This document shows, one piece after another, positions 13,658 to 20,304 of a DNA stretch of 64,000 nt. The notes beneath the pieces were generated by a model. It was not told the origin of the DNA. It saw only the letters and a list, made by a program, of their open reading frames with translations, and searched no databases. The number at the start of each line of letters is the position of its first letter. Positions within the stretch are counted from its first letter, which is position 1. The position numbers and the translations under genes are program-made. This DNA is from Gemmatimonadota bacterium (GTDB taxonomy: Bacteria; Gemmatimonadota; Gemmatimonadetes; Gemmatimonadales; GWC2-71-9): the NCBI GenBank assembly GCA_003222135.1, contig QHUM01000046.1, positions 1,664 through 65,663 of the forward strand, in the 5' to 3' direction.

Positions 13658-14380
13658 GTGGCTGCTCCTGCCGACCGCGCCAAGCTGTTCGAGGAGATGC
13701 ACCGGCGCGGGGAGCCCTTCGACTACAGTCGCCGGGCCGCCGAGCTGCTGCGTCATCGGTTCGTCGGTGAAGCCGTGCGGCGGCTCCACGCCCACCCGAC
13801 GCGGCTGCTCGACATCGGCTGCAGCATGGGACAGCTCACGGCGCAGCTCGCGGGGCTCCCAGATGCCTTGTTCGCCGTGGATCTGTCGCCGACGGCGATC
13901 CGGGCGGCGCGGGACCGGCTGCGCACGGTCGGTGTGCCCGCCCGGTTCGTGGTCGCGAGTGCCACCGCGCTGCCGTTCCGAGAAGCGGCATTCGACGTCA
14001 CCGTGCTCTCGGACGGGCTCCACAGCTGGCAGCTCACCCCCGAGGAGCGTCAGCGGGCTCTGGCGCAGACGCATCGGATTCTGAGACCGGGCGGCTGGGC
14101 CGTACTCACCGAGTACCTGCAACCCCGCGCCTTTCCAGCCTTCGTGACGCAGGTGCGCGCCAGTCCGCTCGCCGTGGTGTCGATCGAATACCTGCACGAT
14201 CGCTTGTGGTACCAGGTGGAGTCGTGGTTCAAGGCCGTGCGCGATTGGCGCTGGGTGCAACGCCTGTTCGGCAGCATGGCCTTGGCGCGGCTGCTCCGCT
14301 CGGTCGCGCGGCCGCTCGGACCCTTAGGGTCGCGGCACATTCTGGTTATTGCCCGCCGATCTGACGAGGTGCCGCAGTGA
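13658..14380 (+). CDS. class I SAM-dependent methyltransferase
   Basis: Motif I LLDIGCSMGQL and later VLSDGLH ... LRPGGWAV. GTG 13658 sits directly after the upstream stop. The track ORF begins at 13481 inside the previous gene. Confidence 0.8.
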   Translation: MAAPADRAKLFEEMHRRGEPFDYSRRAAELLRHRFVGEAVRRLHAHPTRLLDIGCSMGQLTAQLAGLPDALFAVDLSPTAIRAARDRLRTVGVPARFVVASATALPFREAAFDVTVLSDGLHSWQLTPEERQRALAQTHRILRPGGWAVLTEYLQPRAFPAFVTQVRASPLAVVSIEYLHDRLWYQVESWFKAVRDWRWVQRLFGSMALARLLRSVARPLGPLGSRHILVIARRSDEVPQ

Positions 14381-14415
14381 GGTGCTGCACTTGTTGCATC
14401 GGTGTCACACGAAAT

Positions 14416-14430
14416 GTGCATAATCTGCAC
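14416..14430. promoter_or_regulatory. perfect dyad GTGCA-N5-TGCAC (candidate enhancer-binding-protein site)
   Basis: gtgcataatctgcac. More TGCAC/TGCAT half-sites lie at 14386-14399. The centre is about 60 nt upstream of the sigma54-like element. Confidence 0.35.
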
Positions 14431-14480
14431 GGTCATTAGTACAGTCTAGCAAGCCTACCTGAATGGGTGGTTGCGCGCTG

Positions 14481-16026: not shown

Positions 16027-16070
16027 CAGCGACCCGACAGCGTTTTGACACCTAGCGTGAAGGAGTGAAT

Positions 16071-16478
16071 ATGAAGCTCATCACCACTGTCGTTCGTCCC
16101 GAGCGCCTGCCCCAGGTGAAGGCGGCGCTGTTCCGCGCCGGCGTCACCGGCGTCACGATCAGTCGCGTGAGCGGGCACGGCGGGGAGCGGGAGCTGCACG
16201 AGCACTACCGCGGCGTCAATGTGGTGCTCGAATTCCGCGAGAAGGTGCGCCTCGAGATGGCCGTGTCGGAGCCGTTCGTGGAGCCGACCATCAATGCGAT
16301 CCTGTCCGCGGCGCGCACCGGCCAGGTCGGCGACGGGAAAATCTTTGTCCAGCCGCTGGAACGGGTGATTCGGATCAGGACCGGCGAGGTGGACACGGCC
16401 GCGGTCACGGCGGTCACGGCGGACGAGGTGCAGCGCCGGGCGCTGCAGCAAACGGCGCAGCATACGCCGAAGGTGTAG
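16071..16478 (+). CDS. glnK: P-II nitrogen regulatory protein with 23-aa C-terminal extension
   Basis: MKLITTVVRPERL...TGQVGDGKIFVQPLERVIRIRTGE is canonical P-II. AAGGAG lies 6 nt before ATG 16071. The gene is directly downstream of amtB. Confidence 0.9.
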   Translation: MKLITTVVRPERLPQVKAALFRAGVTGVTISRVSGHGGERELHEHYRGVNVVLEFREKVRLEMAVSEPFVEPTINAILSAARTGQVGDGKIFVQPLERVIRIRTGEVDTAAVTAVTADEVQRRALQQTAQHTPKV

Positions 16479-16521: not shown

Positions 16522-17703
16522 ATGCGTCTTCTCAGCGCCCTGTTGGTCGCTCCCGTGTGGCTGGCCGCCCAGAGCGCGCCTTCGGCACCGGCAGACACGA
16601 CGGACAAGAAGGCCGCCGCGCCCCCGCCGCCTGCGCCGACCGTTAACCACCTCGAGACCACGCTGGCCGGCTTCAAGCTGTCCGGCTTCGCGGAGGCGTC
16701 GTACGCCTACTCGGGGCGCAGCCTCGGCGACACGGCGATCGTCGGGCGGCTGTACGATCGGCTGCAGAACCGCTTCGCCCTCAACGCGCTCGCCGTGGTG
16801 CTCGACCGGCCCTACGATCCGGCGAAGTTCAGCGCCGGGTTCCACACCGAGCTATTGGTGGGCCAGGACGCGACCGTAATCCAGTCGAATGGGCTCTTCG
16901 CGGGCGCCGCGACGCCGGTCCCGGTCGACGTGCCACATCTCTACGTCACGTTGAACGTTCCGACCGCCAGTGGCAACGGGCTGCAGTTCAAGGTCGGGCG
17001 GATTCCCACGCTCCTGGGCCTCGAGGTAATCGAGACCTACGCCAACCCCAACTGGTCGGAGGGGAACCAGTTCATCTACGTGGAGAACTTCACCGCGCTC
17101 GGGGTGAGCGTGGAGACGAAGTTCAACAACCATCTGGACGCACAGTTCCGTTTGATCAACGGCTGGGACCAGGTCGCGGACAACAACGGCCGCAAGTCCC
17201 TGATGGGACGAGTCGGGATCTATCCCGATGCGGCGACGTCGCTCGGCATCGTGGGGTTCTGGGGGCCCGAGGAAGCGAACATCAACAATGCCAACCGGTA
17301 CGGCGTCGAGGGGTTGCTGTGGCGCAAGCTCGGCAAGGCGGCCGTCTGGGTTCAGGGGGATTACGGGAAGGAGCAAGCCAACGCGGCGTTGCCCGATCCG
17401 ACGAAGGACGCGCAGTGGGTGGCGCTGGGTGGCTGGGTCACGTACGACTTCACGTCATCCGTCGGTTTGGCGCTGCGCGGCGACTACGTGAACGATCAGG
17501 ACGGCGCCCGCACCAGCGGCGTATTCGGTTTCCCAGCAAACGCGGGACAGAAGTTCGGCAGCGGCACGGCGACGTTGAACATCCGTGCCTGGCCGGACGC
17601 CGTGGTCCGGCCCGAGCTCCGGTACGACCGCTCGACCCTGGCGGCGTTCGCCGGCAAGAAGGATCAGGTCACGTTCGCGCTGGCTGTCGCGTATCTGTAC
17701 TGA
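16522..17703 (+). CDS. outer-membrane beta-barrel porin (OmpL-like putative porin family)
   Basis: Signal peptide MRLLSALLVAPVWLAAQ, an alternating amphipathic pattern and an aromatic C-terminus (VAYLY). It is the third gene after amtB-glnK. Confidence 0.6.
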   Translation: MRLLSALLVAPVWLAAQSAPSAPADTTDKKAAAPPPPAPTVNHLETTLAGFKLSGFAEASYAYSGRSLGDTAIVGRLYDRLQNRFALNALAVVLDRPYDPAKFSAGFHTELLVGQDATVIQSNGLFAGAATPVPVDVPHLYVTLNVPTASGNGLQFKVGRIPTLLGLEVIETYANPNWSEGNQFIYVENFTALGVSVETKFNNHLDAQFRLINGWDQVADNNGRKSLMGRVGIYPDAATSLGIVGFWGPEEANINNANRYGVEGLLWRKLGKAAVWVQGDYGKEQANAALPDPTKDAQWVALGGWVTYDFTSSVGLALRGDYVNDQDGARTSGVFGFPANAGQKFGSGTATLNIRAWPDAVVRPELRYDRSTLAAFAGKKDQVTFALAVAYLY

Positions 17704-18530
17704 GGCTGGCGAAAGAACCGGTACAGCAGCCAGAGGTCGAGCAGGCCCACCGCGCCCAGGACCGAGAACGCGGCGCCGCTGTCGATGAGGTGGAGCTGTC
17801 GCAGCAGGGTCGAGATGCCATAGCCGACGACCCAGGCGTCGAAGCTCATGCAGACGCGCCGGAAGGTTTCCGGTCGCACGTGCCGAATGACGCGCCCGCC
17901 GAGCGGGATCCCGACGATGAGGCTCGGGAGGATGTAGGGGAGCAGACCGGCGCTCTCGACCGTGAACATGCCGGCCACGTAGTACGCCGCGGCGGTGAAG
18001 GTCGATTCGGCGAGCCGGACGAGGCCCAGCCCCGCTCGGAAGTCCTGCTTGGCGAGTCCCTGGTTGCTCAACATCACGGCCAACGGCGGGCCGGAGATCG
18101 TGGTGACGGAGTACAGCACGCCGAGGCCGCTCCCGAAGAGCAGTCCGGCGCGCTGCTCCGCCTTGATCGGTCGGCGAAATCCGGCTGCTTGCAGGAGAAT
18201 CAGCGGCAGCAGGGCGATAAAGGTCGCGAGCTTGAGCCACCCCGGCTGCACCCGGTGCACGAGCGCCGTCCCGAGCACGACGCCCGGTGCCAGGCCGAGC
18301 ACCATCGGCAGGACCCGGCGCCACACCTGGGGGACGCTCGCTCGATTGACCCATAGGACATACGCGTTCAACACCACCTCGACCCATACGAGCGCCGGGT
18401 TGAGGATCCGATTGGTATAGAAGAGGAGGGCCACCGGCGCCGTGATCGACGAGAATCCGTACCCGAGGGATCCGTTGACCGTAGCGGCCAGCAATGTCGT
18501 GAGAACCAGGGCGAACGTGCTCGATGTCAT
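17664..18530 (-). CDS. TauE/SafE-family anion (sulfite/sulfonate) transporter
   Basis: Polytopic membrane protein with GSLGYGFSSITAPVALLF and a second half-repeat GPPLAVML. Start taken at ATG 18530. Confidence 0.8.
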   Translation of the reverse strand: MTSSTFALVLTTLLAATVNGSLGYGFSSITAPVALLFYTNRILNPALVWVEVVLNAYVLWVNRASVPQVWRRVLPMVLGLAPGVVLGTALVHRVQPGWLKLATFIALLPLILLQAAGFRRPIKAEQRAGLLFGSGLGVLYSVTTISGPPLAVMLSNQGLAKQDFRAGLGLVRLAESTFTAAAYYVAGMFTVESAGLLPYILPSLIVGIPLGGRVIRHVRPETFRRVCMSFDAWVVGYGISTLLRQLHLIDSGAAFSVLGAVGLLDLWLLYRFFRQPQYRYATASANVT

Positions 18531-18576
18531 GTCCAGCGAGGTCTGGCTCCCTCTCGTTTCAACGTTGAGGTGATGG

Positions 18577-18618
18577 CACAACAAACAGGCCCGGCGCACC
18601 GTGGGGTGGCCGGGCCTG
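18577..18618 (-). terminator. intrinsic terminator in the tauE leader
   Basis: On the minus strand: CAGGCCCGGC-CACC-CCAC-GGTG-C-GCCGGGCCTG, then TTTGTTGTG. The main stem is 10 bp with a further 4 bp. It ends 46 nt before the tauE ATG. Confidence 0.7.
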
Positions 18619-18653
18619 AAAGCGGCTCGAGTAGCGAAGAAACTAGCGGTTCT

Positions 18654-18746
18654 TCACAACTTCAAGAGGCGCGCTGCCGTGTCCGTCCAACCCTGCAGTT
18701 GGTCGTAGCAACAACAGACCGGGCAACACAGCGGCGTCGCGTGCAT
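18654..18746 (-). CDS. candidate Cys-rich leader peptide (30 aa) for tauE
   Basis: MHATPLCCPVCCCYDQLQGWTDTAARLLKL. Five Cys fall in 7 codons (18708-18728), three of them spelled TGT. The ATG lies about 10 nt after a -10-like box. The stop is 35 nt before the terminator stem. Confidence 0.5.
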   Translation of the reverse strand: MHATPLCCPVCCCYDQLQGWTDTAARLLKL

Positions 18747-18756
18747 GTGATCGGGC

Positions 18757-18785
18757 AAGCTAGGCCGGGCGTTGCGGCGTGTCAA
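18757..18785 (-). promoter_or_regulatory. sigma70-like promoter for the minus-strand leader
   Basis: On the minus strand: TTGACA (18785-18780), a 17-nt spacer, then TAGCTT (18762-18757). Confidence 0.35.
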
Positions 18786-18794
18786 CCGGGCGGG

Positions 18795-18823
18795 TTGACA
18801 GCCGAGCGCTCGGTCCGTAAATA
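18795..18823 (+). promoter_or_regulatory. sigma70-like promoter for the plus-strand leader
   Basis: TTGACA (18795-18800), a 17-nt spacer containing the 12-nt palindrome CCGAGCGCTCGG, then TAAATA (18818-18823). Confidence 0.35.
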
Positions 18824-18833
18824 ACCGGCATCC

Positions 18834-18950
18834 ATGATGACGCACCGCGCCTGCCGCCGTTGTTGTCCGTGTTGTCGGACGATCGACGCTCGCTCCCCGG
18901 GGAGCGGACGCGGTTGCGGCGCTCGAGTGCCGGCCGGCAACGGATGCTGA
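18834..18950 (+). CDS. candidate Cys-rich leader peptide (38 aa) for cysC-cysH-sat
   Basis: MMTHRACRRCCPCCRTIDARSPGSGRGCGARVPAGNGC has 7 Cys, five of them in 8 codons (18852-18875) and four spelled TGT. The ATG lies about 10 nt after the -10 box. Confidence 0.5.
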   Translation: MMTHRACRRCCPCCRTIDARSPGSGRGCGARVPAGNGC

Positions 18951-18977
18951 CCGACTAGTTTAAACGGCACGCGCGTC

Positions 18978-19025
18978 GCAGATCGGGCCCGCTTCCCAAG
19001 AGGGAAGCGGGCCCGCTGCTTTTTT
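18978..19025 (+). terminator. intrinsic terminator in the cysC leader
   Basis: GCAG-(AT)-CGGGCCCGCTTCCC-AAGA-GGGAAGCGGGCCCG-CTGC followed by TTTTTT. It ends 21 nt before the cysC ATG, which has its own GGAGG. Confidence 0.8.
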
Positions 19026-19046
19026 CTCGCTGCGGAGGTTCGAGAG

Positions 19047-19628
19047 ATGGCCCAAGTCGAGTTGGCGAGCGGCAGACGGATCAGGCAGGCGTCGGGCTTT
19101 ACGCTGTGGTTCACCGGCCTGTCAGGCGCGGGAAAGTCCACGCTTGCCGCCGCCGTCAGCCGGGAGCTGCGCCGTCACGGGATCGCGGTCGAAGTCCTGG
19201 ACGGCGACGAAGTGCGCCAGAATCTGTCACAGGGGCTGGGTTTCTCACGTGAAGACCGCGACACCAACATCCGCCGCATCGGCTACGTGGCGAGGCTGCT
19301 CACGCGGAACGGGGTCGCGGTGATCACCGCCGCCATCTCTCCGTACCGCGCGGTGCGCGACGAAGTGCGCCGGGAAGTGGGCGCGTTTGTCGAGGTGCAC
19401 GTGAAGGCCTCGCTCGACGAGTGTATTCGGCGCGATGCGAAGGGGCTGTACCGGCGGGCGCTGGCGGGCGAGATCCCCCACTTCACTGGGGTCTCCGACC
19501 CGTACGAGGAGCCGCTGCGACCCGAGCTGGTCGTGGACACCGAGCGGGAGGACGTCGGCGACAGCGCCACGCGGGTGATCGAGCGCCTCGTCGAGCTCGG
19601 CTATCTCCGGAGCGCGGCCGATGCCTAG
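19047..19628 (+). CDS. cysC: adenylyl-sulfate (APS) kinase
   Basis: P-loop [18 protein letters not shown], plus [27 protein letters not shown]. Confidence 0.95.
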
Positions 19629-20304
19629 CCCGGCGGAGGTGCGCGCGCACGCTCGGGCGCTGCACGGGGCGAGCCCCGAAGCGATTCTGACGTGGGCCGT
19701 CGCGACGTTCCCGCGAAAGGCGGCGCTCACCGTGAGCTTCGGCGGTGGCGGTGTGGTGCTCGCGCACCTGATCGGTCGCATCGACCGGACGGTGCCCGTG
19801 ATGTTCCTGGACACCGGGTTCCATTTCCCGGAGACGTACGCCTTCAAAGACCGGTTCGTCAGGCAATACGGCCTCAATCTCGTCGAGCTGCCTCCGTTGA
19901 CCGACCCCGGACCGCTGTACCGGACCGATCCCGATCGCTGCTGCTGGATCCGTAAGGTCGAGCCGCTCGAGCGGGCGCTCGCGGGGTTCGACGCCTGGAT
20001 CAGCGCCGTGCGGCAGGATCAGACCGACCACCGCGCGGCGACCGAGCTACTCGAGTATCACGAGGTCGCCGGACGCCCCATCGTGAAGGTGTTTCCGCTC
20101 GCTCACTGGAGTCGGGCGGACGTGTGGGACTACATCCGGGAGAACGACGTTCCCTATCACCCGCTGCTCGATCAGGGCTATACGAGTATCGGGTGCTGGC
20201 CCTGCACCAGACCGACGACAGCGGGGGAGCCCGAGCGGGCGGGCCGCTGGGCCGGCACCAGCAAGACCGAGTGCGGGCTCCACACCTTCAGCGTGAAGCG
20301 ATGA
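19621..20304 (+). CDS. cysH: APS/PAPS reductase (Fe-S, APS-reductase-type Cys pattern)
   Basis: [13 protein letters not shown], the Cys pairs [12 protein letters not shown] and GCWPCT, and the catalytic KTECGLH. 8-nt overlap with cysC. Confidence 0.9.

Follow-up and report, generated by a model that had tools for sequence, protein, structure and literature searches.

Why does a short open reading frame (ORF) crowded with cysteine codons, followed by a hairpin and a run of U residues, lie directly upstream of a transporter gene in a bacterium of the Gemmatimonadota, and does it control that gene? We address this question for the tauE gene, which encodes a permease of the TauE/SafE family, and for the leader that precedes it in a 64-kb stretch of contig QHUM01000046.1 (assembly GCA_003222135.1). 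This stretch is referred to as the window, and all coordinates are positions in it. The first-pass annotation of the window had read the element as a Cys-rich leader ORF plus terminator that controls tauE, and the comparative data support this reading. The element is real and not a product of chance. It is probably a ribosome-mediated, cysteine-sensing leader-peptide attenuator that acts through the terminator.

Anatomy and conservation of the tauE leader

The leader and tauE are both located on the minus strand. The positions reported in the first-pass annotation for the promoter, ORF, Cys run, hairpin, tail and tauE ATG were all correct to the base, and the features of the leader are as follows.

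18785-18780, minus strand: -35 box TTGACA, from direct reading of the sequence
18762-18757, minus strand: -10 box TAGCTT, 17 nucleotides (nt) from the -35 box, also from direct reading
18746-18654, minus strand: leader ORF of 30 codons plus stop codon (18656-18654), encoding MHATPLCCPVCCCYDQLQGWTDTAARLLKL
18728-18708, minus strand: putative regulatory Cys codons, five within codons 7-13 (TGT TGC ... TGT TGT TGC)
18716-18708, minus strand: conserved Cys triple, codons 11-13
18702-18698, minus strand: segment 1, CCAAC (CCACCC in most relatives), predicted to pair with segment 2 when the ribosome is absent
18693-18681, minus strand: segment 2, GGGTTGGACGGAC, an invariant block that may form the 5' strand of the antiterminator
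18666-18626, minus strand: middle hairpin, which holds the leader stop codon, seen in the minimum-free-energy fold
18618-18586, minus strand: terminator hairpin, with stems of 10 and 4 base pairs, a single bulged C between them and a CCAC loop
18618-18605, minus strand: segment 3, the 5' arm of the terminator
18600-18586, minus strand: segment 4, the 3' arm of the terminator
18585-18577, minus strand: U-rich tail TTTGTTGTG, 46 nt before the tauE ATG (18530)
17664-18530, minus strand: tauE, a TauE/SafE (TSUP, DUF81) family permease (Pfam PF01925, 3e-23)

The ATG of the leader ORF (18746) is located 10 nt past the -10 box and has no Shine-Dalgarno sequence; judged from this spacing, the mRNA probably extends only 0-4 nt ahead of the ATG. 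The terminator hairpin has a predicted energy of -31.0 kcal/mol, as compared to -18.4 ± 2.6 kcal/mol for shuffled sequences (z = -4.8), and the entire leader folds at -95.3 kcal/mol (z = -3.3 versus shuffles). A scan of positions 17500-20000 against Rfam with E-values up to 10 gave zero matches on the tauE leader. The sole match nearby was to RsmW on the terminator of the cysC leader described below, with 22 bits versus a gathering score of 52.

Runs of Cys codons were counted in all six frames of the window. The tauE leader is the only site with at least five Cys in seven codons. At least four Cys in seven codons were found at 10 sites, of which seven are off-frame or antisense inside long ORFs and three are intergenic. 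Two of the intergenic sites are the leaders of tauE and cysC. The third (14377-14403) was rejected as a leader because it lacks an ATG and is made up of TGCA-type repeats ahead of amtB. In the 400 nt upstream of TauE genes at 79 loci, 24 Cys runs were observed on the sense strand versus 2.5 expected from the rest of the same loci, an enrichment of about 10-fold. This enrichment and the conserved architecture bear out the earlier remark that two such ORFs are hard to explain by chance. The core CCP-x-CC that the two peptides were said to share is inexact, since the plus-strand peptide reads CCPCC and the CCP varies in relatives of the tauE leader, which have CRP, SCL, CSF or CHP at this position. 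The likeness of the two peptides in this motif is not meaningful.

To collect relatives, the TauE protein was searched against one genome per species, which returned 80 loci (numbered with L), 15 from Gemmatimonadota with 76-92% identity and 65 mostly from Acidobacteriota with 62-74% identity. Of the 15 closest loci, which all come from Gemmatimonadota, 12 have a homologous short ORF ahead of the TauE gene. A scan of metagenome DNA with the pattern GGACGGAY-N36-66-GGCCCGRCCA was too loose and gave mostly chance matches, with at least two family members (L110, L170) among the 120 matches listed. In total, 16 sequences were aligned over the whole leader, in one alignment that includes the promoter (A1) and another for the RNA (A2).

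The promoter elements are well conserved in the 15 sequences that retain a promoter: all keep GTTGAC, all have TAnnTT or TAnnnT 17-18 nt past the -35 box, and in 11 of them the ATG is found exactly 10 nt past the -10 box. An in-frame ATG and Cys run are present in 15 of the 16 family members, and the run with the Cys triple, UGUUGUUGU (TGTTGTTG), is nearly invariant. The triple is followed by CCACCC, replaced by CCAAC in the window and L002, and then by the block GGGUYGGACGGAC, which is invariant in the 16 sequences except for the Y position and the last base in L004. Additional copies of this 13-nt block were not found in the window, where a single match with two mismatches is within chance expectation. 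The block around the stop codon is deleted in L010 and L013, and is thus not essential. In the middle hairpin, 98% of the core helix is paired, with one G-C pair changed to A-U on both sides in the window and L002. The terminator consensus, GGCCCGRCCAC...GYCGGG plus a U run, is kept in all 16 sequences. Its helix is paired in 97.7% of the cells, with one position changed from G-C to A-U in L015, a compensatory change, and to G-U in two others. The U runs are longer in relatives, for example TTTTTTGTTTG. Both elements proposed in the first-pass annotation, the ORF and the terminator that follows it, are thus conserved in relatives.

The pattern of insertions and deletions provides information about which part of the ORF is under selection. 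Between the ATG and the Cys triple, the spacing takes one of four values (24, 27, 30 or 33 nt), all divisible by three. Past the Cys run, L004, L006 and L170 carry an insertion of 5 nt that puts them in another frame, such that the invariant block is read as RRVGR, not PQGWTD. The ORFs of L010 and L013 stop 3-6 nt past the invariant block and the others 16-24 nt past it. Indels before the Cys run are thus in frame and those after it are not, which points to selection for reading of the start and the Cys codons, with no such selection on the remaining peptide. As read from the alignments, this in-frame constraint is the signature of a sensory leader ORF. The Cys codons themselves are strongly biased, with 57 UGU and 6 UGC codons among the 63 in the leaders versus 12 TGT and 32 TGC in the genes of the window. 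Selection may favour UGU because it is read by wobble or because it lets the GU-rich run pair, two effects that the data cannot separate.

A candidate antiterminator and the predicted switch

In the first-pass annotation, no obvious antiterminator pairing had been seen by eye for this leader. A candidate has now been found in the pairing of 18693-18683 with 18613-18603, on the basis of invariance and modelling and without covariation. Segment 2 is proposed to have two alternative partners, namely segment 1 and the 5' arm of the terminator (CCGGCCACCCC, 18613-18603), which contains CCACCC, the same motif as segment 1 of most relatives. Over the 16 sequences, the helix between segments 1 and 2 (1:2) is 88.5% paired, with the window and L002 in a shifted register that pairs CCAAC with GUUGG, and the helix between segments 2 and 3 (2:3) is paired in 95% of the cells. 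The 2:3 duplex has predicted energies of -11 to -15 kcal/mol (-13.8 kcal/mol in the window). In 11 of the 16 sequences, no other part of the leader pairs better with the terminator arm than segment 2.

We modelled the partition function of transcripts cut just before the 3' arm of the terminator, which is the decision point, with or without a ribosome footprint. When no ribosome was placed on the transcript, the probability of the 2:3 helix, P(2:3), was 0.00-0.09 in 15 of the 16 sequences, and segment 2 was paired upstream with a probability of 0.64-0.90, likewise in 15 of 16. With the A site of the ribosome placed at the third Cys codon of the triple, P(2:3) increased to 0.47-0.77 in 11 of the 16 sequences (0.69 in the window). 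When the footprint was moved codon by codon, P(2:3) had its maximum at codons 11-16 in most sequences, and it was approximately zero when the ribosome covered segment 2. The pairing of 18693-18683 with 18613-18603 is thus suggested by the models to be a reasonable and geometrically well-placed candidate for the antiterminator.

These results are consistent with the following scheme. Transcription would start a few bases before the ATG at 18746, as suggested by the promoter geometry, and the ORF would be translated at once. If cysteine is plentiful, the ribosome would pass the Cys codons and follow the polymerase over segment 2 (GGGUUGGACGGAC) to the stop codon, or, alternatively, segment 2 would re-pair with segment 1 (CCAAC/CCACCC) behind the ribosome. 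Either way, the 5' arm of the terminator would be left free, the hairpin and U tail would form, and transcription would end at approximately 18577-18585. If Cys-tRNA is scarce, the ribosome would stall on codons 7-13, above all on the triple at codons 11-13, and would mask or unwind segment 1, thereby exposing segment 2. Segment 2 could then capture the terminator's 5' arm while the 3' arm is still to be transcribed, and the polymerase would read into tauE. Since the divergent cysC-cysH-sat genes have a Cys leader of their own, the two units would be co-induced, such that the uptake and the activation of sulfate would be switched on together.

The cysC leader, the tauE gene and leaders in Acidobacteriota

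On the opposite strand, genes for APS kinase, PAPS reductase and ATP sulfurylase (cysC-cysH-sat) are divergent from tauE, an arrangement found in the window and in L002, L011, L015 and L110. They are preceded by a leader with the following features.

18795-18800 and 18818-18823, plus strand: cysC leader promoter, TTGACA and TAAATA
18834-19025, plus strand: cysC leader element, with an ORF of 38 codons (18834-18950), a terminator (18984-19015) and a T run

The ORF encodes MMTHRACRRCCPCCRT..., and the terminator of 14 base pairs is followed by TTTTTT. The leader is conserved in the same four relatives (MMTHRACRRCCPCC... / MITHRATTNCCPTC...), in which the peptides have the pattern M(M/I)TH(R/Q)A...CCP(C/T/L)C..., in agreement with the parallel that had been drawn between the tauE and cysC leaders. 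Modelling of the same kind suggests a related logic for the cysC leader, in which an upstream GGGGAGCGG element would sequester the terminator's 5' arm except when codons 20-35 are covered by a ribosome.

The two divergent promoters have their -35 boxes back to back (18780-18800), in an inverted repeat, TGTCAAC-N9-GTTGACA. L002 shares this repeat, and in L011 and L110 the distance between the boxes is larger. The repeat could reflect nothing beyond the two promoters, or it could be an operator, common to both, at which a regulator acts. Directly past the tail of the tauE terminator, a box with the sequence CAYCACCTCAAC (18564-18575, minus strand) is kept in most family members. It resembles the anti-Shine-Dalgarno end of 16S rRNA, and in the window its CACCUC can pair with GAGGGAG upstream of tauE.

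A scan of the TauE protein against NCBIfam matched no family. CysZ of Corynebacterium glutamicum, a member of the DUF81/TauE family, is a high-affinity sulfate permease according to genetic evidence (PMC1266029; see also PMC5840216). Given this precedent and the predicted induction by cysteine starvation, an importer of sulfate or sulfite would fit, not an exporter, and the tauE product is probably such an importer. The tauE gene and a gene for an OmpL-like porin (16522-17703, plus strand) are convergent and their 3' ends overlap by approximately 40 nt (17664-17703), for which reason tauE appears to be monocistronic here. Further away in the window, the region upstream of the ammonium transporter gene amtB (14377-14450, plus strand), in which the third intergenic Cys run was found, has repeated TGCA/TGCAC motifs (GGTGCTGCACTTGTTGCAT ... 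GTGCATAATCTGCAC) that yield a spurious Cys run in one frame. This region may be a control region of the sigma-54/NtrC type; amtB is followed by a P-II gene (16065-16478).

Poly-Cys ORFs were also identified within 400 nt upstream of the TauE gene in approximately 17 of the 64 acidobacterial loci with enough upstream sequence. They belong to at least four types that are unrelated to each other: M..L.C(C)(C)R...CRCAC..., MRFPGCPACCCCC..., MCCCCPC... and ML.V.RCACCCC.... Examples of the peptides, from L016-L080, are MRFPGCPACCCCCAG..., MCCCCPCRAQVCSCAC..., MSSSLTCCCRPGAASICRCAC... and MLLVGRCACCCCR..., and the Cys codons of the acidobacterial leaders amount to 81 UGU and 27 UGC. Seven of the leaders are followed by strong canonical intrinsic terminators, for example GAAGCCCGG...CCGGGCUUUU, and the CRCAC type (L016, L022, L025 and others) has no obvious terminator. 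Modelling of the seven leaders with terminators under a ribosome mask showed the GC-rich arm paired upstream in every state, with discrimination only in L067. In L022, tauE is the first gene after the leader and is followed by cysD and cysN. Judged from these sequences, poly-Cys leaders seem to have evolved repeatedly ahead of genes of this one transporter family.

Competing explanations, known systems and significance

Several observations weigh against an attenuator that senses cysteine. The Poisson probability of the Cys-run enrichment upstream of TauE genes, approximately 5e-16, was obtained by counting related genomes as independent. In the window, the U tail of the terminator is broken up (UUUGUUGUG) and the -10 box TAGCTT is weak. 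A consensus scan for promoters and terminators flagged neither the promoter of the tauE leader, whose -10 box is too weak for it, nor the terminator, which in our reading escaped the scan because the bulge leaves fewer than five uninterrupted inner pairs. In L003, the RNA blocks are present, and the start codon and promoter are absent. In this copy (L003 2770-3010), the Cys triple, invariant block and terminator are still found, next to an unrelated upstream sequence; the leader may have decayed or been rearranged, or the copy may be an artefact of assembly. Two further loci (L008, L014) encode TauE homologs with 78-82% identity and have no leader; in both, the TauE homolog is closely preceded by the end of a porin-like gene of the same orientation. 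Even close relatives can thus lack the attenuator. As for the antiterminator, both strands of the 2:3 helix are invariant, so the covariation test found no covariation and was uninformative. When the G-rich block was shuffled, 0.13-0.47 of the shuffles paired at least as well, such that the duplex is not significant, and little or no switch was obtained in the models of 5 of the 16 sequences (L002, L004, L010, L012, L015). Finally, the TauE family name refers to sulfite export, and it would be pointless for cysteine starvation to induce an exporter.

Some of these points bear on explanations in which the ORF or the hairpin has another role. The ORF might sense cysteine with an output other than controlled intrinsic termination, namely translation control, mRNA stability or Rho-dependent termination, the hairpin being a constitutive partial terminator or stabiliser. 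The only poly-Cys leaders proven experimentally do act on translation (10.1101/834739), the antiterminator has no covariation and pairs no better than shuffles, the acidobacterial CRCAC type has no obvious terminator, and the anti-Shine-Dalgarno-like CACCUC (18575-18564) can pair with the GAGGGAG upstream of tauE. Against this stand the strong hairpin and U tail in 16 of 16 family members and in seven unrelated acidobacterial leaders, the distance of approximately 180 nt between the Cys tract and the tauE start with no pairing between them, and the lack of conservation in relatives of the Shine-Dalgarno-like sequence before tauE. Such a different output is the main alternative and is unlikely on balance. 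It is quite unlikely that the leader takes a second input in addition to cysteine, from a protein or sulfur metabolite that binds the 13-nt block, which would make it a composite attenuator under peptide plus ligand or protein control within a ribosome-run Cys regulon across Gemmatimonadota and Acidobacteriota. This proposal comes from the invariance of the block and of the blocks next to it even though the TauE proteins differ by up to 24%, the frame of the 13-nt block varies and its pairing with the terminator arm does not exceed that of shuffled G-rich segments.

A conserved structured RNA (a riboswitch or a leader bound by a protein, for example) might instead govern the terminator, with the ORF incidental. 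This would account for the better folding of the leader than of its shuffles (z = -3.3) and for blocks, including GGGUYGGACGGAC, that are invariant in nucleotides and read in different frames. It would not account for an ATG and Cys run that stay in frame across indels of 3, 6 and 9 nt, nor for unrelated acidobacterial leaders that have only the poly-Cys ORF in common, and with no Rfam family matching the leader we regard it as very unlikely. The variation in frame and length past the Cys run (L004, L006, L170, L010, L013) speaks against a functional Cys-rich micropeptide, whether metal- or redox-binding or the precursor of a modified peptide, with the hairpin as its terminator and tauE under a promoter of its own. 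The peptide is indeed conserved over its first 13 codons, but only 46 nt separate the tail from tauE, no promoter-like site is present there, and the same design precedes cysC. Since the frame is not kept past the Cys run, a micropeptide function was rejected, and the explanation as a whole is most improbable. Lastly, ORF and hairpin might both be accidents of GC-rich intergenic DNA, a view that the 10 sites in the window with four or more Cys in seven codons might seem to favour; seven of these are off-frame inside genes, Cys runs are 10-fold enriched upstream of TauE genes and the whole architecture is conserved in 16 sequences. This conservation refutes the explanation, which is almost certainly wrong.

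Attenuation by a cysteine-sensing leader peptide, which we favour, can be compared with several known systems. Leader-peptide attenuators are classical in the amino-acid operons of proteobacteria (trp, his, leu, thr, ilv, pheA). The tauE leader resembles them in the short ORF with codons for the end product, the alternative 1:2, 2:3 and 3:4 pairings (of which the 2:3 pairing is a candidate here) and the terminator before the first structural gene. It differs in its amino acid, cysteine, in its target, a permease gene, and in its leader ORF, which lacks a Shine-Dalgarno sequence and would begin almost at the 5' end of the transcript. The stop codon is located approximately 25 nt beyond segment 2, whereas it lies between segments 1 and 2 in the classical attenuators. 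The S-box (S-adenosylmethionine, SAM) riboswitches and T-box leaders of cys and met genes in Firmicutes perform the same task by premature termination in the 5' leader that is relieved upon starvation. Unlike the tauE leader, they have no translated ORF and sense SAM or uncharged tRNA directly by RNA.

For cysteine, Canestrari et al. (2020; Mol Microbiol 114:93; 10.1101/834739) described polycysteine leaderless short ORFs in mycobacteria, the "Cys ribulon", and stated that attenuation mediated by upstream ORFs (uORFs) had not been described before for this amino acid. In Mycobacterium smegmatis, such ORFs were shown experimentally to act on translation by unmasking a ribosome-binding site (10.1101/834739). 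As in mycobacteria, the tauE leader has consecutive Cys codons in an unannotated short ORF that would lie at the 5' end of the transcript, without a Shine-Dalgarno sequence and upstream of sulfur or cysteine genes. There are several independent leaders per genome, here those of tauE and cysC-cysH-sat, and stalling on the Cys codons is proposed to relieve repression. The mycobacterial transcripts begin with the first base (A or G) of their start codon, and the ATG located 10 nt past the -10 box in 11 of 15 sequences would fit a leader of 0-4 nt. In contrast, the tauE leader has a conserved intrinsic terminator and U tail between the ORF and the gene, and it stems from another phylum with no sequence relationship seen. 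The defining feature of the mycobacterial system, translational control without a terminator, does not describe it, and no conserved sequestering of a ribosome-binding site was seen in the tauE leader and its relatives.

Two further systems are computational predictions. The uORFC-8-2 upstream of cysS in Rhodobacterales is a predicted attenuator (Brewer et al., 2021, RNA Biol, PMC8632094) and likewise has tandem Cys codons in a uORF within the first stem, followed by an intrinsic terminator and U run. The description of this motif sets the tauE leader apart (PMC8632094): uORFC-8-2 is found in Alphaproteobacteria with another sequence, has two Cys codons (14-15) versus five in the tauE leader (7, 8, 11-13), and controls cysteinyl-tRNA synthetase, whereas the tauE leader precedes a transporter gene and its sister leader sulfate-assimilation genes. 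By comparative genomics, Seliverstov et al. (2005; PMC1262725) identified candidate Cys leader peptides upstream of cys/cbs operons in Actinobacteria. These are also short ORFs with runs of Cys codons, but they have no terminator hairpins and Rho-dependent termination was proposed (PMC1262725), whereas the terminator is the best-conserved part of the tauE leader. We found nothing on such Cys leaders in Gemmatimonadota or Acidobacteriota in published full texts, and in a survey from 2010 almost none of the predicted acidobacterial attenuators had an assigned function (PMC2965389). As far as the sequences tell, the tauE leader has the marks of a leader-peptide attenuator: an ORF under selection, a cluster of Cys codons, a terminator before the gene and a putative gene of the cysteine pathway. 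It is thus best placed among the leader-peptide transcription attenuators, a type of switch that has long been known; what would be new is the cysteine specificity in these phyla and tauE as the target.

Cysteine has long been a conspicuous gap in leader-peptide control, and the first proven case, from 2020, is mycobacterial and acts on translation. The locus studied here and its relatives indicate a terminator-based cysteine attenuation of sulfate uptake and activation in Gemmatimonadota and Acidobacteriota, and suggest a sulfur regulon run by the ribosome in these abundant and poorly studied soil phyla. The compact element could serve as a marker for the annotation of sulfur regulons in metagenomes. 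For one subgroup of the poorly understood TauE/TSUP family, the regulation also provides a clue to function, which would be import and not export.

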